64,000 nt of DNA from Alistipes sp. (GTDB taxonomy: Bacteria > Bacteroidota > Bacteroidia > Bacteroidales > Rikenellaceae): positions 145,722 to 209,721 of the forward strand of contig JAFYQI010000002.1 in assembly GCA_017547175.1 (NCBI GenBank), in the 5' to 3' direction. The notes under the pieces were generated by a model. It did no database searches, had not been told where the DNA came from, and worked only from the letters and a program-made list of their open reading frames with translations. Shown one piece after another: positions 12,771 to 41,150 of this stretch. A program made the translations under genes and the position numbers. Numbering within the stretch: the first letter of the stretch is position 1; each line of letters opens with the position of its first letter.

Positions 12771-12778
12771 AGCAGACG

Positions 12779-23964: not shown

Positions 23965-24037
23965 GCCTCTTTAGCTCAGTTGGTAGAGCACGACACTCTT
24001 AATGTTGGGGTCCAGGGTTCGAGCCCCTGAGGGGGTA
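23965..24037 (+). tRNA. tRNA-Lys (anticodon CTT) with a non-canonical 3' acceptor strand
   Basis: Hand-folded cloverleaf: D arm GCTC/GAGC, anticodon loop CTCTTAA, T arm CAGGG-TTCGAGC-CCCTG. Acceptor GCCTCTT pairs with AGGGGGT through three G.U pairs. Confidence 0.8.
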
Positions 24038-26101: not shown

Positions 26102-26140
26102 GAGTACCCCTCTATGTAGAAGGTGGTGGGTAGAGGGGTG
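26102..26140. promoter_or_regulatory. att/res-like inverted repeat (GAGTACCCCTCTA - 16 nt - TAGAGGGGTG)
   Basis: ACCCCTCTA (26106-26114) and TAGAGGGGT (26131-26139) are exact reverse complements. The half-site resembles GAGGGGGTACT at the tRNA junction. Confidence 0.35.
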
Positions 26141-26258
26141 TTTTAATAGGTGTCCCCGCAATTTGAATTTTTATGAAGGGGTACGCAAATAGCATATACC
26201 CCATATCTGTTGTGTAAAAATTTTTTTGTCCCAAATTTTCGGTTTCAAAAATCGACCA

Positions 26259-26885
26259 CTATATTCCAAACTCCTTCTTAACTCGCTGTACGGTCGATAC
26301 CGATACACCACATATTGCAGCCGTATCACGGATACTTTTGCCCGCCTTCAATGAGCGAATGACCTTGCCGTACTCCTCTTGCTTGCGCTCTCTGCTCTTT
26401 ATCGAGCCGAGCTTGCGACCCATCTTTATACCTTTTACCTTTGCCAACTCTCGACCCGAATTCAATCGGTAACGAATGCTATCACGCTCTATCTCGGCAA
26501 AGCTACTCAATACAGCAGTAATCATCTTGGCAATGGGATTGGGTTGTCCATCGGCATTGAGGGTACAGAGCGGCAAATTTTGGATATAGACATTCACACC
26601 CGCCTTCGTCAGCTCGTCAATGGTATTTACAACAATCTTTGTCGAGCGTCCCAAACGACTGATTTCAGAAACGCATAGTGTGCCAATGCGGTTCTCGATG
26701 CAAAACTCTATGCACTCAGTGAGGACGGGGCGGTTCTCCTTCGCTCCGCTCATCTTCTCCTCGTATGTTGCTACCAGCTCCATTTCGTTGATGGCGATAT
26801 GTCGCTTCAAATCCTCTACCTGACGCTCGGTATTTTGTCTGTCACTCTCACTGCTCACACGAGCATAAATCACTGCCGTTGCCAT
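26259..26885 (-). CDS. small serine recombinase (resolvase/invertase family)
   Basis: AVIYARVSSESDRQNTERQ catalytic N-terminus and C-terminal HTH (IRDTAAICGVSVSTVQRV). Confidence 0.9.
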   Translation of the reverse strand: MATAVIYARVSSESDRQNTERQVEDLKRHIAINEMELVATYEEKMSGAKENRPVLTECIEFCIENRIGTLCVSEISRLGRSTKIVVNTIDELTKAGVNVYIQNLPLCTLNADGQPNPIAKMITAVLSSFAEIERDSIRYRLNSGRELAKVKGIKMGRKLGSIKSRERKQEEYGKVIRSLKAGKSIRDTAAICGVSVSTVQRVKKEFGI

Positions 26886-26936
26886 ATTTGTCGTATCAAT
26901 TTAGTGTATTCGTTTGGTATCCCTTTTTGATATGTG

Positions 26937-27242
26937 TTAAGCGGGATTGCTATACTCTGCCTGTACTCGTTCCTTGTATTGGTCACATCGCTCGACCATA
27001 CCATCTATAACCGCTACGAGATTGTCGCAATAGACCATTTCTTCAACTCTATTGTCTGCCAATCGTACCTCGAATAAGTCGAGCGCATCGTTGTAGATAA
27101 CCTCAACCCTGCCCTTGTAGAGAAAGCCATCGACTTCAAACGCCAACCCACTATCATCAGGCAGTGCTGTGGGGTGATGAAAACCCCACGAAAACACCAC
27201 CATCAACTGACTGCGAAGTATCGCTATAATGTACTCTGCCAT
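26937..27242 (-). CDS. hypothetical protein (101 aa)
   Basis: Same-strand run with a 4-nt gap to the next ORF. No motif recognised. Confidence 0.55.
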   Translation of the reverse strand: MAEYIIAILRSQLMVVFSWGFHHPTALPDDSGLAFEVDGFLYKGRVEVIYNDALDLFEVRLADNRVEEMVYCDNLVAVIDGMVERCDQYKERVQAEYSNPA

Positions 27243-27246
27243 AGAT

Positions 27247-27579
27247 TTAGAATACTTGGATTAGATTCTCGTAGCGCAATGAGCGGTAACCACCCTTTTC
27301 TACATCCCAATACTTGATGGTGTTCACTTGGTCACCGCTCAAGCCCCTGCCGTTCTGTGTAGCTTTCATCAGCTGACCATTGCAAGAGCCCCAAGCCTCA
27401 CGAATTTCGCCCGTGCTCTGCTTCTTGTAGAGGAAGTGTGCCACGCCATTCTTCAACTTCTCCTTAAGCAAGTCAATCATCTGCGCCTTAACCACGCCCA
27501 TCGCCGCACTACCTGTACGAGCAAAAATAACATTAGCACGATGTGCTGTCATTGAGTTTACTACAACCATTGTCTCCAT
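27247..27579 (-). CDS. small SH3-barrel-like protein, DUF2693-like
   Basis: FLYKKQSTGEIREAWG...IKYWDVEKGGYRSLRYENLIQV resembles DUF2693 proteins of Bacteroidales mobile elements (from memory). Confidence 0.5.
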   Translation of the reverse strand: METMVVVNSMTAHRANVIFARTGSAAMGVVKAQMIDLLKEKLKNGVAHFLYKKQSTGEIREAWGSCNGQLMKATQNGRGLSGDQVNTIKYWDVEKGGYRSLRYENLIQVF

Positions 27580-27611
27580 ATCTGTATGATTTTTTATTAC
27601 ATCTAAACTTT

Positions 27612-27806
27612 TTAATAACTTCTTCTAATCTGCTTTGGTTCACCCCAACCATTCAGGCGATATACCTCACGTACAGCCTCCTCGTACGAATATACATCCT
27701 TAACAAACGATGCCATCGTTCCTGTCTCAGATACCATCGTGTACAGCCAAATCCCCCACAGATTATAGTGGCGACCAAACTTGTATTTTCCAACTTCTAC
27801 CTTCAT
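27612..27806 (-). CDS. hypothetical protein (64 aa)
   Basis: First gene of the minus-strand run, directly downstream of the divergent AT-rich promoter region. Confidence 0.45.
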   Translation of the reverse strand: MKVEVGKYKFGRHYNLWGIWLYTMVSETGTMASFVKDVYSYEEAVREVYRLNGWGEPKQIRRSY

Positions 27807-27819
27807 AGTTTATCATCCT

Positions 27820-27843
27820 TTTGTATTACAAATATAATACAAA
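27820..27843. promoter_or_regulatory. operator-like palindrome TTTGTATTA-N6-TAATACAAA
   Basis: Perfect 9-bp arms in the divergent intergenic region next to an HTH gene. Confidence 0.4.
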
Positions 27844-27958
27844 TAAATTATATAAACAAATATTCAACTCGATTTTATAATAAAATCATATAATTTTTAT
27901 GATATTTTTATGGCTATATAATAATTGTTTTGTATTTTTACTGAAAATATGGACTAAT

Positions 27959-28276
27959 ATGAACGGATTAGAGCTTGAAAAGACCTATTTTGAGGAGCAC
28001 GCTATGGAGATGCTTACTGCGGCCAATATGACAAAGGCTCAGTTTGCAAGGGCTATGGATATACTACCCCAAAATATCAATAAACTTATTTCAACCAAGA
28101 ATGTGCTAATGCTCATTAAGGTATCTACGGTATTGGATATTCCCATCCAAGTATTGATATATGGAGAGCAGGAGGATGAGCCTCAGACTGATTTGCACGG
28201 TTGCATCTATATAAACAATGTACCTCACATTTTCAATAATAGAGAAGAGTTGGATGAACTACTAAAACAGGAGTAA
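27959..28276 (+). CDS. XRE-type helix-turn-helix protein
   Basis: MTKAQFARAMDILPQNINKLIS is an HTH_3-like core. ATG 27959 preferred over the track start. Confidence 0.6.
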   Translation: MNGLELEKTYFEEHAMEMLTAANMTKAQFARAMDILPQNINKLISTKNVLMLIKVSTVLDIPIQVLIYGEQEDEPQTDLHGCIYINNVPHIFNNREELDELLKQE

Positions 28277-28337
28277 GTTCATGAATTGCGCATTTTGAGT
28301 AAGAAGCATTTAGATTATCCAAACAACAATTGATACT

Positions 28338-31010
28338 ATGAAAAACATCCCCTATAACGAAATATGGTACACTACACGTAATCATGATGTTCTCAAGAGT
28401 TTTGATATGTATGTATTTGGCTCACAACTTTTATCTAATACATATGAGAAAGGAATGGGGGTATTACGATTTAACACAGATTTAACTATTATAGGGGAAT
28501 CTGCATTTTCTCTATGTAATGAATTAGTGACAGTGGAGCTACCCGACTCTATTACTAAAATTGATGTAGGAGCATTCTCCGCTTGTGAGAATTTGAAAGA
28601 ATTTAAAGTGCCAGATAGTGTCAAGGAGATAGGAGAATGCGCTTTTGGGCTATGTGTAAACTTGGAAAAATTCAGTGGTAAGTTTGCGTCAATAGATGGA
28701 TTGTGCCTTATTGTCAATGGTATTCTTAATCAGTTTGCCCTTGGATGTGGTTTGAAAGAATATACTATTCCAAACGATGTTAGAGAGATTGGATGGAGTG
28801 CGTTTTCAGATAGTGAGTTAACTAAAATTAATTTGCATGAAAATATAATTAAGATTTGTCATAGTGCATTTTGTGGTTGTCAAAATTTAACATATATCAA
28901 TATTCCTAATAGTATTACAACCATTGCGGATGTCGCTTTCCAAGATTGTATTAACCTCAAAAATATATTTATTCCTAAGACGGTTACCAATTTAGGAAGC
29001 GAGATATTTGAAGGTTGCAATAACATTTTGGTGAAATATGAGGATGAAAGTATTAAGATTTCAAAGGACAAGGGATTAAAACAACTTTTGGAAGAATACG
29101 TTGCTTTACAGAAAGATGTACCTAATGGTTGGATATATTCTGGTGATAAAACAGCAAAAATAATACATGTTCCCTATGGCGTTACATTGGTAAAATCAGA
29201 AGCATTTGAGGGTTGTGATAATGTTGAAGTTATACATTTACCACAAACCATTGAAGAAATAGAGGACGGAGCATTTACAGATTTGGACAACTTGTATCGC
29301 TTCGAGAGCGATTATGCCTCTCCTGATGGGAAATGTTTAATTATCAAAAATACCTTAGTTGGTTTTGCGGCAAAAGACATTGAGGAATATGAGCTCCCAA
29401 CAGGCTTTGCGAAGGTCGCTCCCATGGTTTTCTATAACAAAGAACAAATAAAAACAATCATCATCCCCGAAGGCGTTCTTTCTATAGGGGATGAAGCTTT
29501 TATGGGGTGCCTTAATCTATACCATATAAAGCTACCTTCGAGTCTTAATTTTATTGGTTACAAAACCTTTGCTGACTGCATCTCTCTAAGGAAGATAGTT
29601 GTACCTAATAGCGTTAAAGTAATTTGTGGTAATAATTTTCAAGGTTGCGAACATTTAGAAGAAGTAACATTATCTGACAACTTAATAGCCCCTAACGAAA
29701 GTCTCTTTGGCGGATGTAATAATCTAAAAAAACTTAAATGTAAATTTGGTTCAAAGGATGGCAGATGTTGTATTATCAATGGTGTATTAACAGACTATTT
29801 TGGTACACGCTCAATATCCGAATATGTTATTCCGAATGAGGTTGAAAGTATAGCAAAATTTGCATTCCGCCATGATGAGCACTTGCAAAAAATAATTATA
29901 CCCGCCTCTGTTACCCAAATTGATGATAATGCATTTTTCTCATGTAGTAAATTAAAATATGTAGAATTTGAAACAATAACCCCACCAATATTTGGTGAAA
30001 ACATATTTTCCCAAACTGCATTACTTGCGATTTATGTTCCTGACGAAGCTATTTCTGTATATGAAAAAGTATTTAAGAAAACTAAAGCCAACGCATGTGT
30101 TGTTGCAAAATCAAAAAGCAATAATTGGCTGAAAGAAGTTGCTTTTGGAGATGCATACAATAATGAAATATCAATGGAGGCTTTATGGAGTATTGGTGTT
30201 TGTTGCTACAAAGAAAGAAAAACAAAAGAGGCTTATGCTATTTTCGAGAAATTAATTGCTCGAGGGGAAAGCGATAGCTACCCTTACTCGATACTCATTG
30301 AGGCATATCGTAATCGTCAAGACATAGAAAACGAGAAAAGAATTCTTACTATGGCTTTAAAGAATCTGCCTAATAGAGGCAATTCTCACCACGAATACCA
30401 AAAACGCTTAAACACTTTATCTGCCAAAACTCAAGAATACAAATTACCCACAATTGCAGAGATTCCCCAAATTTCCATTAAGCATGGTGAATTATATGAA
30501 GAGGAACTATTTAAATTGCCTGAGTTTAATTTTTACACAGAGGGAAGTGGATTGCCTATCAGTTGGTATGAACGAGAAATCGTAATGCAACCAATCGGAG
30601 ATATAATAGACTACTTTAAAGAGCTTATCCATGAAGCAGAGTTAGCAACAAGCATTAAAGATTATCAAAAAGCAGCTTTCATATATGAGCAAATAATTGC
30701 TGAAAAATATTGGAAACCAGCCCCGTATGACAAATTGATATTAATATATTCCCGAGCAATGTTATTGGATGACGAAATTAGAGTTCTCAAATTAAGTATA
30801 GACCATTTTACTAAACTTAGAGCAAAACGACATCAGTATATTATGGCATTAGCGGAAAAATATAATGCTCTTGATTATATCGAAAAGAAAAAGAAAACAA
30901 CGGGGCGAATAAATTATTATTATGGATGGAAAGGAGATATTTGTCTATATGATTCATATCCTGCAATTGATAAATGGATAAAAAGACTCGAAAAGAAATT
31001 AAAGCAGTAA
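28338..31010 (+). CDS. cytoplasmic BspA-type LRR protein with C-terminal TPR-like helical domain
   Basis: No signal peptide or lipobox. About 590 aa of LRR_5 repeats (LPDSITKIDVGAFSACENL ...), then about 300 aa of helical repeats (EAYAIFEKLIARGE..., YQKAAFIYEQIIAEKY...). Confidence 0.8.
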   Translation: MKNIPYNEIWYTTRNHDVLKSFDMYVFGSQLLSNTYEKGMGVLRFNTDLTIIGESAFSLCNELVTVELPDSITKIDVGAFSACENLKEFKVPDSVKEIGECAFGLCVNLEKFSGKFASIDGLCLIVNGILNQFALGCGLKEYTIPNDVREIGWSAFSDSELTKINLHENIIKICHSAFCGCQNLTYINIPNSITTIADVAFQDCINLKNIFIPKTVTNLGSEIFEGCNNILVKYEDESIKISKDKGLKQLLEEYVALQKDVPNGWIYSGDKTAKIIHVPYGVTLVKSEAFEGCDNVEVIHLPQTIEEIEDGAFTDLDNLYRFESDYASPDGKCLIIKNTLVGFAAKDIEEYELPTGFAKVAPMVFYNKEQIKTIIIPEGVLSIGDEAFMGCLNLYHIKLPSSLNFIGYKTFADCISLRKIVVPNSVKVICGNNFQGCEHLEEVTLSDNLIAPNESLFGGCNNLKKLKCKFGSKDGRCCIINGVLTDYFGTRSISEYVIPNEVESIAKFAFRHDEHLQKIIIPASVTQIDDNAFFSCSKLKYVEFETITPPIFGENIFSQTALLAIYVPDEAISVYEKVFKKTKANACVVAKSKSNNWLKEVAFGDAYNNEISMEALWSIGVCCYKERKTKEAYAIFEKLIARGESDSYPYSILIEAYRNRQDIENEKRILTMALKNLPNRGNSHHEYQKRLNTLSAKTQEYKLPTIAEIPQISIKHGELYEEELFKLPEFNFYTEGSGLPISWYEREIVMQPIGDIIDYFKELIHEAELATSIKDYQKAAFIYEQIIAEKYWKPAPYDKLILIYSRAMLLDDEIRVLKLSIDHFTKLRAKRHQYIMALAEKYNALDYIEKKKKTTGRINYYYGWKGDICLYDSYPAIDKWIKRLEKKLKQ

Positions 31011-31032
31011 ATAACGCCTAAACATTAATATT

Positions 31033-32460
31033 ATGAAAGAACTAAGATGCCCAAAATGTGGCACATCATTTACTATAGATGAAGCAGACTATGCTTCTAT
31101 TCTAACTCAAGTCAGAAATGTAGAATTTGAAGAGGAGCTACAAAGAAGAACAGAAGAGGTTAATGCTCAACATGAAGTTGAGTTGGAGATAATTAAAGCC
31201 AAAAGCGATAAAGAATATGCCAATAAACTTGCGGAGAAAGCCCTCGAATCAAGTAAAAAGGACAATGAGATAGCAAAGCTCAATGAGCAAATCAACTCTT
31301 TAACTCTAACAAAGGATTTAGAGATTAAGAGTGAATTGGCAAAGAAAGATGCCGAGATTGCGAAATTGCATGAGCAGATTAATAACATTGCCCAAAGCAA
31401 GGAGTTAGAGTTTAGAAATGAGTTAGCACAAAAAGAAGAACAGATTTCTAAACTTAAAATAGACTTAACAGAAGCTGATGCCCATCTTAAGCTTGCGATT
31501 TTAGAAGAACAAAATCGTTCGAAGGAAGCAATAACTAATAAGGAAGCTGAAATTATTGAGTTGCGTAATATGGTTAAAACGGCTAAGAATGAAGCAATTA
31601 TTAGCGAAAATAACCTTAAGGATAAACACAAGGCAGAACTTCGAATAGCACAAGAACAGATAGAGTTTTATAGAGATTTAAAGAGTCGCATGTCTACCAA
31701 GATGGTCGGTGAAACATTAGAGGAGCACTGCCAAGTTGAATTTGAGCGTATGTTGCGTCCTCATTTGCCATTTGCGTATTTTGAGAAAGACAATGATGCG
31801 AGAGGAGGCAGTAAGGGGGATTTCATTTTTAGAGATTTTGATGACGGCGTAGAGTATGTATCTATAATGTTTGAAATGAAAAATGAATCTGATACAACTG
31901 CTACCAAACACAAAAATGAGGACTTTTTCAAGAAACTTGATGATGACAGGAAAGCTAAAAATTGCGAATATGCAGTTTTAGTATCGCTATTGGAAGCTAA
32001 TAGCGAGTTATATAATACAGGAATTGTTGATGTATCACATCGTTATGATAAGATGTATGTTGTACGCCCACAATTTTTCGTTCCTTTAATAACATTGCTT
32101 GTCAAAGCATCAAGAAAGAGTATTGAATACAAACGAGCGTTAGCAGTAGCCCAGAATCAGTCTGTTGATATAACAAATTTTGAAGAACGCCTGGCAGATT
32201 TTAAGGATAAGTTTGGTAGGAATTATCGTTTAGCAAGTGAGAAATTTCAGGTTGCAATCAAAGAGATTGACAACTCAATTGCTCATTTGCAAAAAATTAA
32301 GGATGCATTAATTGGTTCAGAGAATAATCTTCGTTTAGCAAATGACAAAGCAGAGGATTTGACAATTCGCAAATTAACTCATAAAAATCCGACAATGTCT
32401 CAAAAGTTCAAAGAAGAGAGAATGAGGAAAAGTGGAGATTATGAGATATTAGAAGATTGA
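31033..32460 (+). CDS. DUF2130 family protein (zinc ribbon, coiled-coil, PD-(D/E)xK-like C-terminus)
   Basis: [21 protein letters not shown]-terminus, long coiled-coil, GDFIFRDF...[10 protein letters not shown] nuclease-like motif. Confidence 0.75.
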
Positions 32461-32481
32461 TGAGTGATTTTTAAAATTAAC

Positions 32482-33213
32482 ATGTCACAAACTATGTATA
32501 ACGCTAATAAACTGTATGCGAACATTATTCCGCTATATCACATACATAGAGATAGTGCGTCATCTAATCACGCTATATTGAATTCGGAGAGGAGATGGGA
32601 GCAGTTTATTCCTACTAATTTCATATATGCATTTTTTACATTTAATACATTATATAATGTAGATTGGGAGCAGAGTTTAAAAATTGGACACAAGTGGATA
32701 ATTCTAAATAATAGAGGAGACCTATATGAGTTCGATAAAATCGAACAATATATTAACTTTTGTTGCAAGGAAGAAGAATTTCTTAAAATATATAAAGATT
32801 TTTTTAGAAAATATGTAACACATCGTTATCCATCATGTCAAGTTTTATCAGAACTACACAAAATACAGGTTGATAAACCTCTTTCTAATGGAAGGATACG
32901 GAAGAAGAGTATAGTTTCTTCTTTTCTCGATGCTTGTCATAATTTTCTAGAATACGACAATTTTGATAAACATTTTATAAAAGAAGTAGCAAGGTTCGTA
33001 TATTATATTCGATGTAATCTTTTTCATGGCGTAAAAACTATGGACATGCTTAACGACTCAGCTCAACAAATAAGATTAGAAATATATACATTGTTCATTA
33101 TAGCCATAAACCAAATGGTATTTTCTTACATTGAATACCTAAATGGGTGTGATATTAACAAAAGTTTCTCGGCACTAATTGATGTGCTGAAGTGGAAGAA
33201 TTGTGAGCTGTAA
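32482..33213 (+). CDS. hypothetical protein with HEPN-like Rx4H motif
   Basis: All-helical looking. FVYYIRCNLFHG carries R-x4-H. GTG 32464 is an alternative start, 4 nt after the upstream stop. Confidence 0.5.
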   Translation: MSQTMYNANKLYANIIPLYHIHRDSASSNHAILNSERRWEQFIPTNFIYAFFTFNTLYNVDWEQSLKIGHKWIILNNRGDLYEFDKIEQYINFCCKEEEFLKIYKDFFRKYVTHRYPSCQVLSELHKIQVDKPLSNGRIRKKSIVSSFLDACHNFLEYDNFDKHFIKEVARFVYYIRCNLFHGVKTMDMLNDSAQQIRLEIYTLFIIAINQMVFSYIEYLNGCDINKSFSALIDVLKWKNCEL

Positions 33214-33269
33214 AAGCATAAACTTGAAGAGAAAATAATTTGTAAAATTATCATCTTTTGGTGATAAAA

Positions 33270-34448
33270 ATGAAAGATAAAACAGCGTATAAAGCATTGG
33301 AAAGTATTGCCGAGGATATATCTCTATCAAGGCTTGCAAAGAGCATTGGTAAAGATAAGAGCTGGCTATATCACAAACTGAAGAATGATATTGTCAATGG
33401 AGTTGAATATCGTTTCAATGTTTCTGAGTATGCTTTATTGGCAGAGCGACTTCACAAACTTGCAGAGGATATACATAGATGTGCAGAAGAGTTGGATAGC
33501 GTAGTACAAGATGCCAACCGAACAGCAGGAAGGTATTATACAAATGAGAATGTATTTGAATATCCATTATTCAAAGAGTGGCTCAAACTTATACCTGAAT
33601 TGGAGAGAACAACCATATTAGAACCTTTTGCAGGAGAATGTTCCATACCAAAAATGCTTGAACAATATGGTTTTAAGTGGAAATGTTACGATATTGAAGG
33701 AGGAGATAATGTTGTTAAGAGAGATACAATAAGCAATTTCCCGAAAAATCATAGAGTTTGTATCACCAACCCTCCATATCTTGCGAAAAACTCTGCCACA
33801 AGACGAGGGTTGCAATACCCTGATTGTGAGTTTGACAACATTTATAAGTATTGTTTGAAGCTGATGTTGGATAATTGTCAGTATGTTGCTGCTATTATAC
33901 CTGATAGTTTTATTCAATCAGGATTGTTTACCGATAGATTATATGGGGTTATATCTCTTCCTGAAAAGGTTTTTGAGGATACAGAGTACCCCGTTTGCCT
34001 TGCGATGTTTTCTCCAAAGAAGAGTGCCGATTTTGCGATATGGCGTGGAGATACCTTTTTAGGTAGTTATAGAGAGCTATCTAAAACTGCACTTTTGGAG
34101 TATCGAGATGAGCGATGGGTGTTTAACGATGAGAATGGTAGTATTGGAGTAATATGCGCTGACGGCAACAAGAGTCGTATCCGATTTGTCAAGGGTGAGG
34201 AGATAGACAGCGAGATTAAGGAGAGTAGTAGATTTTTGGTGCGAGTATCAGGATTGCCTGATGATATAGACCGAGATACATTCATCGAGCGTTGCAACAC
34301 CATCTTGGAGCAATACCGAGAAATCACAAAGGATATTTTCCTCAACTCATTCAAAGGATTGAGAAGTGACGGAATGTATAGAAAGAGAATCCCGTTTAAG
34401 GTGATACGTTTGATATTGACTTATGCGTTGGAGCGGATGATAGTCTGA
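33270..34448 (+). CDS. N6-adenine DNA methyltransferase (motif I then motif IV order)
   Basis: ILEPFAGECS (motif I-like) and CITNPPYL (NPPY motif IV). N-terminal ~100 aa are HTH-like. Confidence 0.75.
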   Translation: MKDKTAYKALESIAEDISLSRLAKSIGKDKSWLYHKLKNDIVNGVEYRFNVSEYALLAERLHKLAEDIHRCAEELDSVVQDANRTAGRYYTNENVFEYPLFKEWLKLIPELERTTILEPFAGECSIPKMLEQYGFKWKCYDIEGGDNVVKRDTISNFPKNHRVCITNPPYLAKNSATRRGLQYPDCEFDNIYKYCLKLMLDNCQYVAAIIPDSFIQSGLFTDRLYGVISLPEKVFEDTEYPVCLAMFSPKKSADFAIWRGDTFLGSYRELSKTALLEYRDERWVFNDENGSIGVICADGNKSRIRFVKGEEIDSEIKESSRFLVRVSGLPDDIDRDTFIERCNTILEQYREITKDIFLNSFKGLRSDGMYRKRIPFKVIRLILTYALERMIV

Positions 34449-34538
34449 TAATTCTTTGAATAATACGAATACTAAAAACGGCAGACTCTCAAAAGGGTCT
34501 GCCGATTTTTCTGAATACACCGACAACTTGAATACACC

Positions 34539-35507
34539 CTAAATTAAAATTCCGAGTAAAATAGTTATCTCTATTAGAAGGTTTCTCAGGATTGTCTTAA
34601 TTGATTTAGGGTTATTATCAATCTTCTCTGCCAGTATGCGAAAAGGTTTCATTACCTTACTGATGTGAGTCTTGGGGGATAGGTGCTGGCGCAACAATGC
34701 CTCAACTTTAACTAAATCCCCACCGCAATGCTCCAGCAACAAAAGGTTTTTCAATTCAGAAAGGCTATGTCCAGTAGTAGCATCCCCAACCTCAACCAGT
34801 GCCTTATCCAACATAGACCAAATTGGATTAGCATCAGAGTCGAGCACTGAGTTAAGAGATGTATCAGGGATGTTTAATGCTCGTCTTAGTTGCTCCTTAG
34901 CGTTGAGGTTTAATTCAAATCGTACCTTATCCTTAAAGTAATCTTGCAACTTTTCCCTATCCGCTACGGTGTCCATAAATTTTCGGTTACTGGCACGTTG
35001 CAACTCAGCCTCCTTGTCATAAATGGTTAGACGCTGCTTGTAGGATTTGGTAACGACATTCTTTTCAATGATTAGGTTGTCATTGATATTACGAGTAAGA
35101 TATTTCTTGAAATTACATACACTTGCTCGTATAGCAGAAGATAATTCATTGCAGTTGGGATAATGAATATCTAATGCAACATCAGCCTTGACCACTTCGG
35201 CATCAGTCAAAATTTTATCAATATCTAAATTACAAAATCCTAATTGATTGATATGGTCTAAACATATATGAATGTTATTCTGATTAATTAGTTGAGGGTA
35301 ATCATCTCCGAGAATTTTACCAGTAAATTCTATTACTAATTCTCTTTCTATACAATCAATTTCTACATATAAAAGATATGGATTAGTAATAGTAATTTTA
35401 TATTCAGAAATACATCCATCTCTTAATATACATTTGAACTTAGAATAATCGAGTATCTCTACATAATCAATTTGAGATACAATTTTTAATTTATCAAATT
35501 TTATCAC
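34539..35507 (-). CDS. hypothetical protein, possible replication initiator (Rep_trans-like)
   Basis: QRLTIYDKEAEL resembles the conserved YDK block of replication initiation factors. Function is uncertain. Confidence 0.4.
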   Translation of the reverse strand: MIKFDKLKIVSQIDYVEILDYSKFKCILRDGCISEYKITITNPYLLYVEIDCIERELVIEFTGKILGDDYPQLINQNNIHICLDHINQLGFCNLDIDKILTDAEVVKADVALDIHYPNCNELSSAIRASVCNFKKYLTRNINDNLIIEKNVVTKSYKQRLTIYDKEAELQRASNRKFMDTVADREKLQDYFKDKVRFELNLNAKEQLRRALNIPDTSLNSVLDSDANPIWSMLDKALVEVGDATTGHSLSELKNLLLLEHCGGDLVKVEALLRQHLSPKTHISKVMKPFRILAEKIDNNPKSIKTILRNLLIEITILLGILI

Positions 35508-35767
35508 TTCTTCATATTTTTATTCTTTTTATTATTTATAATACTCCCCAGAAAACAAAAAACTTAACCTTGATAAGTGGTTATAACTTGACTTTTTCTA
35601 CATCCTATATATAATTATATGGGAATAGAATTATAAAGTCAATGAAAAGTTGGTTGAGATGTGTCCTTATTGTAAATTTCGGGGTTAGGAATAAGATACC
35701 TAAGATTCCAAATGCGCATCAAATCATCTTGAAATTCTTTCGAAAACAGAACATCAAGGGGTACAGA

Positions 35768-35800
35768 AGCGAGAATCGAAAGATTCTCGCTTTTTGTTTT
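35768..35800 (+). terminator. orphan rho-independent terminator
   Basis: AGCGAGAATC-GAAA-GATTCTCGCT followed by TTTTGTTTT. No credible plus-strand CDS lies upstream. Confidence 0.5.
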
Positions 35801-36001
35801 ATTGTCTCAAATGGCAGTTGGTAGTAGAGCATATGACGCTCCGACGCAATATAGGCGGTTGATGTTTTGGGTGCAAGTTCCCTACGTCACCGACTATATG
35901 GCATCTGCCGTTGTCAATATACCACCAACCGAGCACCACCCCATGGTGCTACTCACAAAATGCAGGTTGCATGGATGTAATACGCTATTTTTCGCCTATT
36001 A

Positions 36002-36019
36002 TTGACAAACGTATGTCAA
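36002..36019. promoter_or_regulatory. palindrome TTGACA-N6-TGTCAA upstream of the WYL gene
   Basis: Perfect 6-bp arms. The same TGACA half-site recurs at 37052-37078 and 37160-37178. Confidence 0.4.
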
Positions 36020-36098: not shown

Positions 36099-36106
36099 TA
36101 TTTTTG
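36099..36106 (+). promoter_or_regulatory. Bacteroidota -7 box TATTTTTG for the WYL gene
   Basis: Matches TAnnTTTG, 37 nt upstream of ATG 36143. Confidence 0.4.
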
Positions 36107-36142: not shown

Positions 36143-37051
36143 ATGGATCAGCCGAAAATTGAGCGTGTGCTGCGTCTGATGAAGATGATGACGGGCAACA
36201 ACAACTACACCGTGGAGGATATGGCCGAGCGACTCGGTATCTCCTATCGGTCGGTGTATCGTTACATCGAGACCTTTAAGGAGGCCGGATTCGTTGTGCA
36301 ACGCAAAGAGGGCGGCATCTATAAACTCGGTAAGGAGAGCCGCTACTTCAAGGATATCTCGCAGCTCATCCACTTTACCGATGAGGAGGCTCACATGGTC
36401 AACCAACTCATCGAGGGTCTGGACAATACCAATATGCTCAAGCAGAACCTCCGCAAAAAACTCACGGCTATCTATAACTGCACTTCGCTTGCCGATAGTG
36501 TGGTCGAAGGCAAGAACGCAATTAATGTCAATCGCGTAATAGAGGCCATCAACGACCAAAAACAGGTCATTCTTCGCAGCTATGCATCATCACATACGGG
36601 CGTAGTTCGCGACCGCCTGGTTGAGCCGTTTGGTTTTACGACCAACTATGTGCAGATCTGGTGTTATGAGCCGGAATCGGGACTCAACAAACTCTTTAAT
36701 GCGGCCCGTGTAGGAGCAGTAGAGGTGCTGAACGATGATTGGAAGTTTGCCGACAAACATCACGAAGGCTACATCGACATCTTCCGCATTACGGGCTTTG
36801 AGCAGAAATGCGTGCAGCTGGAGTTGGGCGTAATGGCGCACAACCTCTTGATCGAAGAGTATCCGTTGGCAACTCGCGACCTCACACCGATCGACGACTC
36901 ACATTGGCTACTCGACACGATGGTCTGCAACTATGTCGGCATTGGTCGTTTCGTAATGGGACTCTCGGAGGATATCAAGATACTCACTCCCGAGTTCAAT
37001 GAATATATAGAGACTACAATTAATCGCTTACATAGCAATTATCATCGTTAG
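36143..37051 (+). CDS. WYL-domain transcriptional regulator (HTH + WYL)
   Basis: IERVLRLMKMMTGNNNYTVEDMAERLGISYRSVYRYIETFKEAGF is an HTH_11-type N-terminus. The central region (RDRLVEPFGFTTNYVQIWCY) is WYL-like. Confidence 0.8.
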   Translation: MDQPKIERVLRLMKMMTGNNNYTVEDMAERLGISYRSVYRYIETFKEAGFVVQRKEGGIYKLGKESRYFKDISQLIHFTDEEAHMVNQLIEGLDNTNMLKQNLRKKLTAIYNCTSLADSVVEGKNAINVNRVIEAINDQKQVILRSYASSHTGVVRDRLVEPFGFTTNYVQIWCYEPESGLNKLFNAARVGAVEVLNDDWKFADKHHEGYIDIFRITGFEQKCVQLELGVMAHNLLIEEYPLATRDLTPIDDSHWLLDTMVCNYVGIGRFVMGLSEDIKILTPEFNEYIETTINRLHSNYHR

Positions 37052-37094
37052 AATTGTCATTGACAGAAATTGACAATTTAGGCTCATACCTTTG
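37052..37094 (+). repeat. operator/promoter-like repeat, copy 1
   Basis: AATTGTCA-TTGACAGAAAT-TGACAATT inverted repeat. The unit CATTGACAGAAATTGACAATT...TACCTTTG (37058-37094) starts 6 nt after the WYL stop. Confidence 0.6.
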
Positions 37095-37095
37095 T

Positions 37096-37125
37096 CCCTG
37101 CGATCAGATGGTTGCAGGGATTTTT
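37096..37125 (+). terminator. terminator of the WYL gene
   Basis: CCCTGC-GATCAGATGGTT-GCAGGG followed by ATTTTTG. Confidence 0.6.
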
Positions 37126-37157
37126 GTTTACATAGTCTAATTTAACAAAAATATATC

Positions 37158-37194
37158 CATTGACAGAAATTGACAATTCGCACCAGTACCTTTG
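37158..37194 (+). promoter_or_regulatory. operator/promoter-like repeat, copy 2, with -7 box TACCTTTG
   Basis: CATTGACAGAAATTGACAATT is identical to copy 1 and offset by exactly 100 bp. TACCTTTG at 37187-37194 matches TAnnTTTG. Confidence 0.6.
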
Positions 37195-37198
37195 CAGT

Positions 37199-37573
37199 AT
37201 GAAAACAACTAAAAACAATACAATTATGGAACACAACACTATTGACAAGCATTTGGGCAATTTCAACATTGCGGGTTTTACATTTTGGGATGGATATGAG
37301 GCATTTGGAGATCTTAAAGTCGGCACTTCCTTGCATCTGGTACGAGAGGCGGATAACAAGTTCGATCCTTATGCGGTGGCTATTTACTATAAGGATACCA
37401 AGCTTGGTTTCATTCCTCGTGGCGAGAATCAGCTGGTAGCGCAGTTTATGGATCTTGGCTACAATATGATCTTTGATCTCCGCGTGCAGCGTATCTGTCC
37501 AGACGCACACCCAGAAAAGCAAGTGGGGGTAATGCTCCGTCTTAAGGAGGCAAATAAGGTGTTTAATAAATAA
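37199..37573 (+). CDS. HIRAN domain protein
   Basis: FNIAGFTFWDGYEAFGDLKVGTSLHLVREADNKFDPYAVAIYYKDTKLGFIPRGEN matches the HIRAN pattern. ATG 37199 lies 4 nt after the -7 box (leaderless?); alternative ATG at 37226. Confidence 0.7.
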   Translation: MKTTKNNTIMEHNTIDKHLGNFNIAGFTFWDGYEAFGDLKVGTSLHLVREADNKFDPYAVAIYYKDTKLGFIPRGENQLVAQFMDLGYNMIFDLRVQRICPDAHPEKQVGVMLRLKEANKVFNK

Positions 37574-37592
37574 TATGTAGGAGGCATAGATT

Positions 37593-38270
37593 ATGGAGAC
37601 AAAGAAAACGCAGGTTTACAACCTTATTATTTTGGACAAGAGCGGATCAATGGAGAGTATCCGTAAGGCTGCCATTGATGGCTACAACGAGACTCTTGGC
37701 TCAATTAAGGCAGCTCAGCTCAAGCATCTCGACACACAGGAACACTTCATTTCGCTAGCTGCATTTTGTGGTTGCGGTGTAGATATGATCTACGATTGCA
37801 CTCCTATTAAGGATGCGGAAAAACTCACAAAGGCGAAGTATGATCCATGCTGCTGCACTCCTCTCTATGATGCGATCGGCAGATGTATTAAGGCATTGGC
37901 AAAGAAGACCGACAAAATTGAGGATGCCGCTGTGCTAGTTACTATCATTACAGATGGTGAGGAGAATGCCTCAGTAGAGTGGACTGGCCCAGCCATTAAG
38001 AGACTTATCGACGAGCGCAAGGAAGAGGGATGGATGTTCTCCTATATCGGTGCGGACCACGATGTAGAGAGCGTTGCAGCAAGCATCTCTATTACCAACA
38101 CTGTTGTATGGACCAAAACGACCGAAGGAACAGAGGCTGTGATCTGTAATGAGAATGAGGCTCGTGAGCGATTCTACGATAAGATGGATGCATGCTGCGC
38201 ACCTTGTGCAAGCGTACATGAGAGAAAGCGAATGCGCAAACAATTTTCGGAAGAGTATTATAAAAAGTAA
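37593..38270 (+). CDS. von Willebrand factor type A (vWA) domain protein
   Basis: MIDAS elements ILDKSGSM, CCTPLYDAIG, ITDGEENAS. No signal peptide. Confidence 0.8.
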   Translation: METKKTQVYNLIILDKSGSMESIRKAAIDGYNETLGSIKAAQLKHLDTQEHFISLAAFCGCGVDMIYDCTPIKDAEKLTKAKYDPCCCTPLYDAIGRCIKALAKKTDKIEDAAVLVTIITDGEENASVEWTGPAIKRLIDERKEEGWMFSYIGADHDVESVAASISITNTVVWTKTTEGTEAVICNENEARERFYDKMDACCAPCASVHERKRMRKQFSEEYYKK

Positions 38271-38275
38271 AAGTT

Positions 38276-39259
38276 ATGAATTTAGATATCACATTATCAA
38301 TTACCAAGAAGCAGGAGGCGCAGCACAACACCTTTCTGCTTAGGTGGAATCCCGCAATATCGTCATACACCATGGATCATCTTGATGATGATATGTCAGA
38401 GTGGGCGGATAGCCGTTGGTGGGATGACGACTTTGATTGGAGCGTCTATGAGTGGCAGAAGGCTCGAAAGGGCGATCGTTTCTTTATGGTGCGTGTAGGA
38501 GAGGGCAATACGGGTATTTTTGCTGCGGGCCGCTTTACATCCGAGCCATATAAAAGCGAGGATTGGTCTGGCAAAGGTCGCGAGGTCTATTATATGAAGA
38601 TGGAGTTTGAGGCGGTATTCCACCCGGAGCGTTCGGAGATTATCTCTACTGAGGATCTGGAGCGAGAGTTACCACATCTCGATTGGCGCAAAGGACATTC
38701 TGGCCAGCTGCTTGAAAAGGAGGATGCAGTTCGCCTGGAGCTGATGTGGCGCGATTTCGTGGGCCGCAATAAGACAATGTTCCTACCTCGCGCTCTGAAG
38801 AATGAGGACTACGACTCTCGTTCAGACATAGACAAGGCTATCGAGTTTGCCTCAAAGGCGCACGCTGCAGACTACGACCTCGATGGCAACCCAACCATCC
38901 TGCACCCGCTGGCGGTAGGTATGATGGGCCAAAACGACACCGAACGTATCGTAGGCTTTCTACACGACGTGGTCGAAGACACGAAATACGACTTTGATGA
39001 CTTGATCGACATCGGATTCTCGTCAGAAGTTATAGCCGCTTTGCGCCTCTTGACCCATGACAAGCGAACTCCATATATGGAGTATGTGGCACAGATCTGC
39101 AAATCAAACAACCGAACCGCCATTCATGTAAAAATGAATGATCTGCGCCACAACCTGGCTCGTGGCAAGGCTGGTGGACATATGCGTTGTGTCGAGAAGC
39201 ATACCATAGCCCTACAGTATATGGAGGATTATCTCCTACAACATAGCCTCACAGATTAG
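38276..39259 (+). CDS. fusion of a PUA-like (EVE/ASCH-type) domain and a RelA/SpoT-type HD (p)ppGpp-hydrolase domain
   Basis: C-terminus ILHPLAVGMM...VGFLHDVVEDT...MNDLRHNL is the HD_4 signature. N-terminus FLLRWNP...GDRFFMVRVG...GIFAAGRFTSEPY looks like a PUA-type barrel (this part is inferred). Confidence 0.7.
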   Translation: MNLDITLSITKKQEAQHNTFLLRWNPAISSYTMDHLDDDMSEWADSRWWDDDFDWSVYEWQKARKGDRFFMVRVGEGNTGIFAAGRFTSEPYKSEDWSGKGREVYYMKMEFEAVFHPERSEIISTEDLERELPHLDWRKGHSGQLLEKEDAVRLELMWRDFVGRNKTMFLPRALKNEDYDSRSDIDKAIEFASKAHAADYDLDGNPTILHPLAVGMMGQNDTERIVGFLHDVVEDTKYDFDDLIDIGFSSEVIAALRLLTHDKRTPYMEYVAQICKSNNRTAIHVKMNDLRHNLARGKAGGHMRCVEKHTIALQYMEDYLLQHSLTD

Positions 39260-39263
39260 TAAC

Positions 39264-39503
39264 ATGTCAAGCTATCGCCGCTTTCGTACTTTTCTGCAAG
39301 AGCAACATTGCGAAGAGGCCTTTGACCGAGCCTTCTATCACCACAACGGTTTCATCTCGCTAGATGAGTCGTTGTGGCAAGCCGGTGAAGCGGCTTATAT
39401 CCTCGCACAGGCCTTCGACTGGCGAAAAACTCCCGAAGGCCGAGCATTTTGGGTGGAGATTGATAGAAAATGGCACGCTTGGCGAAAAAGCAGCATCTTA
39501 TAG
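39264..39503 (+). CDS. hypothetical protein (79 aa)
   Basis: Starts 4 nt after the upstream stop with the same codon bias. No motif recognised. Confidence 0.5.
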   Translation: MSSYRRFRTFLQEQHCEEAFDRAFYHHNGFISLDESLWQAGEAAYILAQAFDWRKTPEGRAFWVEIDRKWHAWRKSSIL

Positions 39504-39571: not shown

Positions 39572-39607
39572 AAAAAAAACCGCGTCAGAGATCATCTGAC
39601 GCGGTTT
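39572..39607 (-). terminator. terminator of tRNA-Leu (usable in both directions)
   Basis: AAACCGCGTCAG-AGATCAT-CTGACGCGGTTT with an A-run on the plus strand (T-run on the minus strand). Confidence 0.65.
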
Positions 39608-39611
39608 CCAG

Positions 39612-39697
39612 TACTCGGAACGGGAATCGAACCCGTACGGCCATTACTGGCCACAGGATTTTAAGTCCGGCGTGTCTACCTATTCCACCATCCGAGC
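39612..39697 (-). tRNA. tRNA-Leu (anticodon TAA), long variable arm
   Basis: Hand fold: acceptor GCTCGGA/TCCGAGT (G1.U72), anticodon loop CTTAAAA, variable arm GTGGCCAGTAATGGCCGT, T arm ACGGG-TTCGATT-CCCGT. Confidence 0.85.
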
Positions 39698-39739: not shown

Positions 39740-40663
39740 TTAATTCGTGCAACTTTCGATATGCTCCTTGATCCGTTCATCATCATCAGGGCGAAACCAA
39801 TGCACCTCCTGATCACGCCTAAACCAGGTCAGTTGACGTTTGGCATAACGGCGCGAGTTGCGCTGAATGAGGGCCACAGCCTCGTCGTGCGTGATCGTAC
39901 CATCAAAATAGTCAAAGAGTTCCTTATACCCCACCGTCTGTAGGGCATTGAGCCGTCGATGAGGAAGCATCGCACGAGCCTCGGCCTCCAACCCCTCCCC
40001 CATCATCAACTCCACACGGCGGTCGATGCGGGCGTATAACTCCTCACGAGGCAGATCGACGCCAATCTTAAGGATGCGGAAAGGCCGCTGTCGACGTTCG
40101 CCGGTACGCAACGACGAATAGGGCTGTCCCGTCTGCAAGCAAACCTCCAAAGCACGTAGCACGCGTGCGGGATTTTGGCGATCCACCTGCTCGTAATAGC
40201 TCGGATCGAGTTGTTGAAGTTCCTCGCATAGTGGCTCCAACCCCTCCGTCTGCAAACGACGAGTCAACTCCTCGCGAAGCTTTTCATCAGCTTCGGGCAA
40301 TTCATCCATCCCCTCACACAAGGCGCGAACATATAGTCCTGATCCACCAACGGCTATTACCGTATCGTGTTGTTGAAACAGTTCATCCAATCGTGCAAGT
40401 GCCATCACCTCATACGAGCCGCAATTCACATCATCGGTCACAGCTCGATCGGCAATAAAATGGTGCTCGGCACGTGCCAGTTGTTCGGGGGTAGGTTGAG
40501 CCGTGCCTATCGGCAGACCTTGGTAAAACTGACGCGAATCGGTCGAAAGTATCGGCGCATGATAATGTTCGGCAAGGCGGATACTCAGATCCGTCTTGCC
40601 GCATCCCGTCGGGCCGACAATCACGACCAACCGTTTAATACTCATCGTCGTAGCTATCGTCAC
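39740..40663 (-). CDS. miaA: tRNA dimethylallyltransferase
   Basis: P-loop VIVGPTGCGKTDLS, and STDSRQFYQGLPIGTAQP. The true start may be Met-7 (40645). Confidence 0.9.
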   Translation of the reverse strand: MTIATTMSIKRLVVIVGPTGCGKTDLSIRLAEHYHAPILSTDSRQFYQGLPIGTAQPTPEQLARAEHHFIADRAVTDDVNCGSYEVMALARLDELFQQHDTVIAVGGSGLYVRALCEGMDELPEADEKLREELTRRLQTEGLEPLCEELQQLDPSYYEQVDRQNPARVLRALEVCLQTGQPYSSLRTGERRQRPFRILKIGVDLPREELYARIDRRVELMMGEGLEAEARAMLPHRRLNALQTVGYKELFDYFDGTITHDEAVALIQRNSRRYAKRQLTWFRRDQEVHWFRPDDDERIKEHIESCTN

Positions 40664-41150
40664 CCTCGAAGTCCGAGAACTCGCTCATCACATCGTCAAA
40701 GATCGAGCCGTCATCATCGTCGGCGTTCGTCTTCGTAGGATCATACTGATCGGGCACATCGGCCACAGCGTAGATCTCGCGCGGATAGGTTGCACCCTCC
40801 TCAGCCTCGTAAGCACCCGTCAGCTCCAGGTAGTAGGCACGCTCGCCAAACATATCGAAGAGGTAGATCAGGCGGTCACGCAGGTGGTGGATGATCTGAC
40901 CGAGCTTGATCTGATCCATCGGCAGGGGGCTGTTCTCCGAGCCGTCGTCCATATCCATCAGCGTAAACTCACGCAACTTCTCCCAACGGTTGTCTGCCGT
41001 AAAGAAGGAGGCCATGCAGGGCTCATACTCCAACGCCTCGAGCAGGAATTCATGAAAATCGAGCAGCGTGGCATCGTACATAATCTCGTAGTCGCGCACA
41101 AAACGATCGTTCTCGTCGCTGAGCATGCGGAAGCGAAATACCATCGACAT
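40635..41150 (-). CDS. pRiA4b ORF-3-like / IS1096 TnpR-passenger family protein
   Basis: FRFRMLSDENDRFVRDYEIMYDATLLDFHEFLLEALEYEP...FFTADNRWEK fits the family as I recall it. Acidic C-terminal tail. Confidence 0.6.
   Translation of the reverse strand: MSMVFRFRMLSDENDRFVRDYEIMYDATLLDFHEFLLEALEYEPCMASFFTADNRWEKLREFTLMDMDDGSENSPLPMDQIKLGQIIHHLRDRLIYLFDMFGERAYYLELTGAYEAEEGATYPREIYAVADVPDQYDPTKTNADDDDGSIFDDVMSEFSDFEGDDSYDDEY

Follow-up and report, generated by a model that had tools for sequence, protein, structure and literature searches.

A stretch of 64,000 nucleotides from an Alistipes sp. contig (JAFYQI010000002.1, positions 145,722 to 209,721; hereafter the window) carries a gene for a WYL-type regulator followed by an operon of four genes (Table 1). 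The operon encodes a HIRAN protein, a von Willebrand factor A (vWA) protein, a fusion of an EVE-like domain of the PUA fold with a RelA/SpoT-type HD hydrolase, and a protein of 79 amino acids (aa). This cassette is real, widespread and modular and, judged by its sequences, is a variant of the predicted 'eraser' conflict systems; it is more general than the sequence-only reading that first drew attention to it had suggested. We tentatively favour the explanation, in which our confidence stays somewhat below even, that it represents a host-side, inducible eraser module, that is, one for detoxification or repair, directed against adenosine-modifying toxins that phages or rival bacteria would deploy.

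Several lines of evidence lead us to this reading. Aph1, the nearest characterised enzyme to the HD half of the fusion, is an immunity protein, and the catalytic residues are invariant. The recurrent partners of the cassette in other genomes, namely ADP-ribosylglycohydrolase (ARG), Macro, SIR2 and a NADAR fusion, remove ADP-ribose, and the same parts have been predicted for host systems that counter ADP-ribosylation (PMC9503650). No effector or synthetase is seen among the five cassette proteins: searches with Pfam, NCBIfam, PADLOC and PHROG revealed no toxin, nuclease, pore, NADase or synthetase. Moreover, the operator-promoter is conserved together with the cassette and within the window is unique to it. 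Finally, the phage and viral sets searched yielded no member of the EVE-like family and the cassettes reside in islands at tRNA and tmRNA genes, which argues for a host-side role.

The HD domain in the C-terminal half of the fusion has Aph1 (7SMG) as its best solved relative, with E-values of 7e-13 for the single sequence and 9e-18 for the family profile, and its AlphaFold2 (AF2) model matches the Aph1 fold in Foldseek with a template modelling (TM) score of 0.86 and a root-mean-square deviation of 2.3 Å. It also matches phrog_990 (2.5e-30). The presence of a RelA/SpoT-type HD domain with its catalytic His and Asp residues, as proposed from the sequence, is borne out by the invariance of H196, H210-P211, H230-D231, E234-D235, D289 and N293 in 60 homologues. 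Aph1 of Bacteroides caccae is the enzymatic antidote to a prophage MuF-fused (p)ppApp synthetase; the prophage MuF toxins of Bacteroides also include ADP-ribosyltransferases, most Aph homologues have no neighbouring toxin, and Aph homologues were noted near DNA repair genes (Ahmad et al. 2023, PMC10083569). The window HD domain agrees with Aph1 in its catalytic residues (H, HD, ED, D and N), in D24 and K133, and in having a basic residue at position 119. However, Aph1 is a single-domain protein of 149 aa that is encoded in a prophage beside a further immunity protein and its toxin, MuF-Apk2 (PMC10083569), whereas the window HD domain is fused to an EVE-like domain and lacks an adjacent toxin. 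Six residues, D24, R96, D116, R119, K133 and Y134, set (p)ppApp hydrolases apart from (p)ppGpp hydrolases (PMC10083569). All six are present in the separate HD genes of sister loci (L072-L084; numbers of this kind refer to the loci compared), and, judged across the family, the HD partner of the EVE-like domain is by this sequence signature a genuine Aph. The window protein itself keeps D24 (as D201) and K133 (as K308) and carries K298 as a conservative R-to-K replacement of R119.

The N-terminal half of the fusion has no match in Pfam, NCBIfam or PADLOC. In the AF2 model of the fusion (pLDDT 79.8; block means in the N-terminal half mostly 76-93, falling to 58-62 over residues 41-60) it resembles the EVE proteins 2AR1, 2P5D and 2GBS, the EVE-HNH enzyme VcaM4I (6YEX) and the YTH domain of Mmi1, with Foldseek E-values of 2e-4 to 2e-3 and TM-scores (target) of 0.5-0.63. 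The PUA-like barrel predicted earlier is thus confirmed at the fold level. The likeness to EVE readers extends to fusion partners, as members of the family are joined to a putatively HNH-like module and to UvrD, but not to sequence: there is no similarity to Pfam EVE (PF01878), a search of the PDB sequences with the family profile found no solved EVE, YTH or ASCH protein, and among 118 EVE-like relatives Pfam recognised ASCH once and EVE never. At the sequence level the EVE-like domain is therefore a separate family without a Pfam entry. It has its own motifs (WNP.ISS, NWS, GDRF, DW.G and W..GHSG) within the Trp-rich pattern WNP.ISS...NWS...GDRF...G.G.TG...PY..DW.G...Y...W..GHSG, of which the glycine-rich W..GHSG loop and the Trp motifs may form a pocket that binds a base or a phosphate. 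Searched exhaustively with HMMER, residues 1-180 retrieve 1306 clusters (50% identity) at E<=1e-3, in which the domain stands at either terminus of proteins of 150-1500 aa.

When the fusion partners were grouped among the best 150 family members, an uncharacterised, poorly conserved region of about 290 aa was found in 53 proteins, the Aph-type HD domain in 18 and a CxxC...HCLCxxC module in 14, with LRR_5, NADAR, UvrD helicase, SseB and ASCH among the singletons. Pfam searches of the partner domains gave no match. The CxxC...HCLCxxC module, also without a Pfam match, may be HNH-like, an assignment made by eye. The region of about 290 aa has hardly any invariant residues, and its sequences form two groups that are distantly related to each other (hhalign probability 94%); it occurs in the representative proteins P0130 and P0131 and about 60 others, in L033 (9125-10000) and in L093-L124. 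It may correspond to a 'TY-chaperone' or to the ARPP domain of Iyer et al. 2022. In the latter, a Cys and a Gln are said to be absolutely conserved (PMC9503650). By this description, through which alone ARPP was compared, both residues are absent from the EVE-like family and from the region of about 290 aa.

The block of four genes in the window is one form that a modular cassette can take. Its recurrent core consists of HIRAN, the EVE-like domain and the Aph-type HD domain, the latter two being fused in Alistipes and encoded by adjacent separate genes elsewhere, and its optional members are the WYL regulator, ARG, vWA, Macro, SIR2 and the 79-aa protein, which is confined to Rikenellaceae. Close homologues of the cassette proteins all come from Alistipes or Rikenellaceae, which marks the window as a chromosome of the Alistipes type, and more distant relatives occur in Bacteroidota and Spirochaetota. 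Among 25 species-representative loci with a full-length fusion, HIRAN lies directly upstream in 11, and the regulator is present in eight, the 79-aa gene in eight and vWA in two. Apart from HIRAN, WYL and the 79-aa gene these loci have no recurrent neighbour, and their surroundings differ from one to the next. On the question raised earlier, whether the triad is conserved beyond this genome, the answer is that the genes do co-occur elsewhere but do not make up a fixed four-gene system, vWA being rare and the fusion standing alone in 11 of the 25. A metagenome scan with the EVE-like profile, in which loci were annotated by iterative searches with hidden Markov models and ten selected neighbours were scanned with Pfam, recovered relatives with 45-52% domain identity. 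In L072, L073, L076, L078 and L084, HIRAN, EVE (about 175 aa) and HD (145-210 aa) are three adjacent genes, and since these separate genes mirror the Alistipes fusion we consider the three proteins to be functionally linked. ARG lies in or beside L001, L011, L044, L056, L076, L078, L092 and L100: immediately 5' to the cassette in L001, inside an Alistipes cassette and between the two operator copies in L011, and in the orders WYL-ARG-HIRAN-EVE-HD in L078, ARG-HIRAN-vWA-fusion in L056, WYL-HIRAN-vWA-X::EVE-ARG-GmrSD in L100 and WYL | EVE-ARG in L044 of Treponema bryantii. Macro stands directly 5' of an EVE::HD fusion in L106, and SIR2 follows HIRAN-X::EVE in L125. A search anchored on vWA found the order integrase-WYL-McrB-McrC-HIRAN-vWA-fusion in 22 contigs as well as YobI | vWA-WYL/WCX-EVE(163 aa)-PDDEXK-AbiEii with ARG nearby.

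To which of the known systems does the cassette come closest? On in silico evidence, Iyer et al. 2022 proposed ARG-centric host systems that would act against viral ADP-ribosylation (PMC9503650, section 3.8) and that are assembled from WYL or Nudix repressors, phosphatases including the alarmone-type HD, vWA/SseB chaperones, Macro/NADAR and restriction-type genes; their ARPP domain also pairs with HIRAN or WYL (PMC9503650). The cassette has in common with them a WYL-type regulator, which presumably acts as a repressor, an alarmone-type HD phosphatase, vWA, a modular make-up, optional Macro/NADAR, HIRAN-paired genes and the lack of a coupled modifying enzyme, and the variable periphery of those systems reappears in sister loci as Macro, SIR2, GmrSD, McrBC and the NADAR fusion. 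Unlike the ARG-centric systems as described, the window cassette centres on an EVE-like reader and an Aph-type HD domain together with HIRAN; the text of Iyer et al. 2022 contains none of the terms 'PUA', 'EVE', 'ASCH' and 'YTH' (PMC9503650). The two also differ in distribution, the ARG-centric systems being found mainly in Actinobacteria, Planctomycetes and Proteobacteria and the cassette in Bacteroidota and Spirochaetota, and both are computational predictions. The earlier view that the architecture matches no named system therefore stands for the combination of EVE-like domain, HD and HIRAN, but in view of the overlapping ARG-centric parts the locus is not wholly undescribed. Similarly, PADLOC returned no named system, as had been expected; the only matches were to its generic WYL model and, over the C-terminal HIRAN half, to PDC-M03B. 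As for PDC-M03 itself, a HipA-like kinase with the HIRAN protein 'HipI', the match is restricted to that half of PDC-M03B (profile positions 134-233 of 250) and there is no HipA-like partner, so that we rejected this assignment. The pairs of a toxic small alarmone synthetase (toxSAS) and a small alarmone hydrolase, such as FaRel-ATfaRel, offer a further parallel in that an alarmone-type HD domain could neutralise the product of a RelA/SpoT-type toxin. A toxin-antitoxin system of this kind was rejected too, as there is no RelA/SpoT synthetase among the five proteins and no such recurrent neighbour.

The regulator had been read as a WYL protein with a helix-turn-helix (HTH). Pfam gives HTH_11 and HTH_29 only, its WYL and WCX models falling short of significance on the window protein, but the PADLOC WYL model matches residues 5-257 (2.7e-15); the HTH part of that reading is therefore upheld by Pfam and the WYL part by the PADLOC model. 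A match to PafC is weak (E-value 0.9, residues 131-284). Orthologues with 79-87% identity are encoded in nine other loci; the regulators of L033 and L133 do match Pfam WYL and WCX but differ from the window protein. In the metagenome locus L048 the regulator gene appeared to be split into ORFs of 101 and 222 aa (15353-15408), which is due to a run of N in the scaffold and not to a frameshift. Overall, about one locus in three has a gene for a WYL-type regulator upstream. WYL regulators such as BrxR and CapW, in which wHTH, WYL and WCX domains follow one another, gate defence loci, and the cassette resembles them in that an HTH and WYL-type protein heads an island-borne operon with a palindromic candidate operator overlapping the promoter; it differs in the duplication of the operator-promoter with a terminator between the copies and in the non-significant Pfam WYL/WCX matches.

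That a regulator of the ligand-sensing type precedes the operon had been noted before, and to this we can add a conserved candidate operator. The TAnnTTTG box recognised earlier is indeed present, not as a single copy but as two, each within a duplicated 35-nt unit, TTGACAGAAATTGACAA-N10-TACCTTTG, which has two matches in the window against none expected (100 shuffles). The consensus of the unit is TTGACA-N4-TTG(T/A)CAA, about 11 nt and TAnnTTTG; in most relatives the operator is a perfect palindrome, ATTGACA-N5-TGTCAAT, and from known promoter geometry its right half would overlap the position of the Bacteroidota -33 element. Box 1 is kept in every locus with the regulator gene or its remnant upstream, and Box 2 lies directly 5' of HIRAN or the fusion in nearly all loci of the Alistipes type, including those with the fusion only. 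Since Box 2 is present even where no regulator gene adjoins, the operator-promoter belongs to the portable unit, and in such loci the regulator must, as far as their sequences tell, act in trans or be absent. Further upstream, a TGACA-N6-TGTCA palindrome occupies the same position in seven of nine orthologous loci; the window copy, TGACAAACGTATGTCA, is possibly a second candidate operator or marks the left edge of the cassette. An invariant TAACTTTG box about 40 nt 5' of the regulator ATG in the orthologous loci aligns with TATTTTTG in the window, which would serve as the -7 box of the regulator gene. We infer that the WYL protein binds Box 1, Box 2 or the upstream palindrome.

The regulator gene has a terminator of its own, as had been proposed. 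Box and hairpin adjoin without a spacer (37087-37126 in the window), an arrangement that recurs in L004, L008, L009, L010, L011, L018, L021, L022, L029, L031 and L057. In 12 loci having Box 1 the free energy of the hairpin is -17 to -21 kcal/mol, and Box 2 is never accompanied by such a hairpin. The arms vary between loci and yet pair, as judged by eye (CTGC/GCAG, CAGC/GCTG, CGAC/GTCG, CCGC/GCGG). Transcripts initiated at Box 1 would start within the 5' arm and could thereby escape termination, and yet the hairpin would still stop read-through coming from the regulator gene; the arrangement could thus be a regulatory device or a mere by-product of the duplication. An Rfam search over the whole window found four tRNAs only and assigned the Box 1 hairpin to no known RNA family.

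Table 1. Positions in the window of the cassette genes, their domains, the candidate regulatory elements and the adjoining tRNA gene.
Feature	Position	Strand	Remarks
Palindrome TGACAAACGTATGTCA	36003-36018	+	About 125 nt 5' of regulator ATG; 1 match in window, 0 expected
Putative Bacteroidota -7 box TATTTTTG of regulator gene	36099-36106	+	Aligns with invariant TAACTTTG box
WYL-type regulator ORF	36143-37051	+	302 aa
Box 1, near-palindromic candidate operator TTGACA-N4-TTGACAA and -7 box TACCTTTG	37060-37094	+	10 nt between operator and -7 box
Terminator hairpin and T run of regulator gene	37094-37126 (hairpin 37094-37121)	+	Begins at last base of Box 1
Box 2, second copy of candidate operator and -7 box	37160-37194	+	Putative promoter of HIRAN-vWA-fusion-79-aa operon
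HIRAN open reading frame (ORF)	37226-37573; longer ORF from 37160	+	115 aa from ATG at 37226
vWA ORF	37593-38270	+	225 aa
EVE-like::HD fusion ORF	38276-39259	+	327 aa
EVE/YTH-like PUA-fold domain	38276-38800	+	Fusion residues 1 to about 175
Aph1-like RelA/SpoT-type HD domain	38813-39259	+	Fusion residues about 180-327
79-aa ORF	39264-39503	+	Helical, Rikenellaceae-specific
Perfect 13-bp inverted repeat	39577-39607	none	Between operon and tRNA-Leu
tRNA-Leu(taa)	39611-39697	-	Right-hand neighbour; 3' end towards cassette

The ORF coordinates agree with the description of tightly packed genes on one strand, the last four of them with 19, 5 and 4 nt in between. The stand-alone HIRAN protein is recognised by Pfam (1.4e-11) and matches PDB entry 3K2Y (1.8e-5); its start is most likely the ATG that all aligned orthologous loci share. 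The vWA protein matches phrog_7371 (2e-34), Pfam VWA_2 weakly (0.06) and nothing in PDB by sequence, and one homologue bears the source label 'VWA domain-containing protein'. Its metal ion-dependent adhesion site is complete, as claimed before, with D15, S17, S19, T89 and D121 invariant in 35 relatives. The vWA family is also present in large phages, at about 30% identity. The 79-aa ORF listed after the fusion has homologues in 50 clusters (40-99% identity), and its gene directly follows the fusion in nine other loci. In the loci examined it occurs only in the presence of an upstream regulator gene or where a contig end has cut off the DNA on that side (L015, L052, L053, L055, L057, L062 and L066). 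The AF2 model of the 79-aa protein (pLDDT 84) has five helices; a fold search found nothing in PDB, and PHROG and BFVD gave only weak matches to uncharacterised phage proteins. Despite the 50 clusters and the nine other loci, the gene was left uncalled in the public assemblies L047-L049 of the window's strain.

The 13-bp inverted repeat beyond the 79-aa gene is likely to act as a bidirectional terminator, and the block adjoins the 3' end of tRNA-Leu, as had been observed. Its GC content was said to be intermediate, and the values of 0.42-0.49 measured over 36-39 kb do lie between those of the backbone (0.52-0.58) and of the AT-rich element to the left (0.31-0.41). No cassette-free strain with the same flanking genes was found, all six contigs retrieved carrying the cassette identically, and neither ARG nor EVE paralogues occur elsewhere within the window. 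The surroundings are of the island and defence kind, in that the cassettes have integrase, McrBC, GmrSD, KAP, YobI and AbiE as neighbours next to tRNA or tmRNA genes: tRNA-Lys(ctt) in the window, L008, L019, L022 and L006, tRNA-Lys(ttt) in L005, and tmRNA in L026, L029 and L030. L029 and L132 have a tyrosine integrase between tmRNA and the regulator, and in both the same regulator precedes McrBC. In the Bacteroidales locus L033 a KAP NTPase, vWA, X::EVE, WYL/WCX, GmrSD and X::HIRAN are consecutive. The dense defence island of this locus (5591-14152) holds the KAP NTPase, GmrSD and WYL/WCX beside the cassette relatives, and that of L133, likewise from Bacteroidales (541-12315), a YobI ATPase, PDDEXK_9, a DUF6922-AbiEii protein, a DNA_alkylation protein and ARG.

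Between tRNA-Lys(ctt) and the cassette the window contains an AT-rich element (23965-35800). It encodes a large serine recombinase of 543 aa, whose ORF overlaps tRNA-Lys, a resolvase of 208 aa, a WYL_2 protein, a BspA-type LRR_5 protein of 890 aa, DUF2130 and DUF5053 proteins, a Phage_CRI-type Rep and a protein of 249 aa without a family match; PADLOC found in it only a weak match to PDC-M69A, on an ORF of 125 aa. In L021 a Rep homologue stands next to the regulator. Since most loci have no such element genes alongside, we regard the element as a neighbour outside the cassette. Some 200 nt (35800-36000) separate a conserved terminator hairpin (35765-35794) from the TGACA-N6-TGTCA palindrome; this stretch is missing from the orthologous loci L009, L021 and L022, and in the window copy ARAGORN and Rfam call nothing. 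To the right of tRNA-Leu, between miaA and a LuxC-like gene, lies a gene for an acidic protein of 171 aa with a PRiA4_ORF3 domain (40635-41150).

How could these parts work together as an eraser? We propose that the WYL protein would keep the operon off via Box 1 and Box 2. Attack by an adenosine-modifying toxin, for which (p)ppApp synthetases and ADP-ribosyltransferases such as the MuF-fused ones of Bacteroidales prophages, Tas1-type effectors of the type VI secretion system and toxSAS enzymes are candidates, would give rise to a nucleotide or a nucleic-acid-derived ligand that releases the repressor. The fusion, in all probability a working enzyme whose HD half is of the intact Aph1 type and predicted to be an adenosine 3'-pyrophosphohydrolase, would then hydrolyse the 3'-pyrophosphate mark. 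Binding of modified adenosine or modified nucleic acid by the EVE-like barrel would provide targeting, HIRAN would add recognition of 3' ends, and vWA may be a Mg-dependent adaptor or chaperone. In the sister cassettes ARG, Macro or NADAR would remove ADP-ribose marks in parallel. An operon with both Aph-type and ADP-ribose-removing enzymes would match both chemistries of the MuF toxins. A narrower version of this scheme, which strikes us as rather unlikely, has the EVE-like barrel reading adenosine-modified nucleic acid and bringing the erasers (Aph-type, ARG, Macro, NADAR) to damaged RNA or DNA instead of free nucleotides. HIRAN would in that case hold the 3' end, the WYL regulator would sense a damage product and switch the system on, the substrates could be, for instance, tRNA CCA ends modified by toxSAS, CapRel-type enzymes or phage toxins, and the HD subfamily with A295 and H309 would be the nucleic-acid-adapted form.

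A number of findings weigh against the eraser reading. The window HD domain departs from the Aph1 signature at three of the six positions, with Q273 in place of R96, A295 in place of D116 and H309 in place of Y134, and the whole Alistipes fused subfamily has the same pattern, D201, K298 and K308 being kept and Q273, A295 and H309 changed. Because of these three departures the window protein may be a diverged Aph whose substrate is other than (p)ppApp. Moreover, the EVE-like::HD relatives in L090, L092, P0129, P0136, P0220 and P0232 have lost the catalytic His and Asp residues while keeping the fold region; they may be inactive derivatives, for which a sensor-like role would fit better than that of an eraser. 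In 11 of the 25 species loci the fusion is the sole cassette gene, which means that HIRAN and vWA are dispensable and the roles given to them above are guesses. Box 2 also occurs in loci without an adjacent WYL gene, and control of the operon by the window's WYL protein is inferred. Finally, the window cassette is without ARG, the defining gene of the ARG-centric systems, although sister loci carry it.

What else could the cassette be? It might be a conventional anti-phage defence system, in which the EVE-like domain together with HIRAN detects phage DNA by its free 3' ends and modified bases, vWA couples the parts, and HD is the effector or turns over a signal, for example by draining a pool of nucleotides or by resetting an immune signal of the alarmone type. 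The McrBC, GmrSD, KAP, YobI and AbiE genes in the neighbourhoods, the fusion of EVE-like family members to the HNH-like module, which recalls the EVE-HNH type IV enzymes, and to UvrD helicase, and the WYL regulator ahead of the operon, reminiscent of BrxR and CapW, would all suit such a system. Yet the cassette holds none of the nucleases, pores, NADases or synthetases looked for, its nearest characterised enzyme is an antidote and not a toxin, and its commonest extra partners, ARG, Macro and NADAR, are erasers and not effectors, and we consider this explanation unlikely. Far less probable in our view is that the cassette is anti-defence cargo of a mobile element, an option raised at the outset, whose hydrolase destroys the alarmone products of toxSAS or CapRel-like enzymes in the manner of phage small alarmone hydrolases. 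The matches of HD to phrog_990 and of vWA to phrog_7371, the weak PHROG and BFVD matches of the 79-aa protein, and the position of the cassette, both in the window and in L021, beside an integrated element that encodes a Phage_CRI-type Rep point in this direction. However, the EVE-like domain was found neither by tblastn in the 50,697 phage records of INPHARED nor with two degenerate peptide patterns in the 2.9 million viral contigs of IMG/VR, and among the places listed in PLSDB plasmids none reaches the EVE-like half and none covers at least 80% of the query. Most loci, besides, lack adjoining element genes, and the cassettes reside together with host restriction systems.

A module for DNA damage or stalled forks is a further alternative. 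HIRAN binds 3' ends, which would here be those of damaged forks, and ARG, Macro and NADAR can reverse nucleic-acid ADP-ribosylation. The WYL protein would then act like PafBC or DriD, as a regulator activated by single-stranded DNA, the EVE-like barrel would read a damaged or adducted base, and HD would clean a blocked 3' end, in keeping with the weak PafC match of the regulator and the location of Aph homologues near DNA repair genes (PMC10083569). But the patchy, island-borne occurrence of the cassette, its variable composition and its insertion at tRNA and tmRNA genes are unlike housekeeping repair, and the fold and signature of HD are those of nucleotide 3'-pyrophosphohydrolases, which makes this account quite improbable to us. 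Should the fusion simply be an ordinary metabolic nucleotide phosphatase, acting like MESH1 on NADPH, or on 3'-phosphoadenosine-5'-phosphosulfate or ppGpp, under a local regulator and with no part in conflict, then it would not surprise that MESH1 and small alarmone hydrolases are among the fold matches and that the fusion often stands alone amid housekeeping genes. Such a role would hardly be expected of one species family that occupies many insertion sites with the same portable operator-promoter, or of a gene that keeps company with HIRAN, WYL and ARG in different phyla, and we give it little chance.

Defence research has centred on the killing of the phage or the infected cell, and systems that undo the damage done by an invader are almost unexplored. 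The cassette offers a compact and testable case from a dominant gut lineage, as it combines an Aph1-family enzyme, for which an assay is known, with an unnamed reader and a pair of operator and regulator. The EVE-like reader forms more than 1,300 sequence clusters with dozens of fusion partners, so that its ligand would annotate a large family. Working out the cassette would also provide an explanation for why Aph-type hydrolases so often occur without a toxin. If the barrel does bring the erasers to nucleic-acid ends, HIRAN, the EVE-like domain and HD would constitute the first dedicated repair system for 3'-pyrophosphorylated ends. If the cassette were shown to protect against toxins of the (p)ppApp synthetase or ADP-ribosyltransferase kind, 'eraser immunity' would be established as a class.

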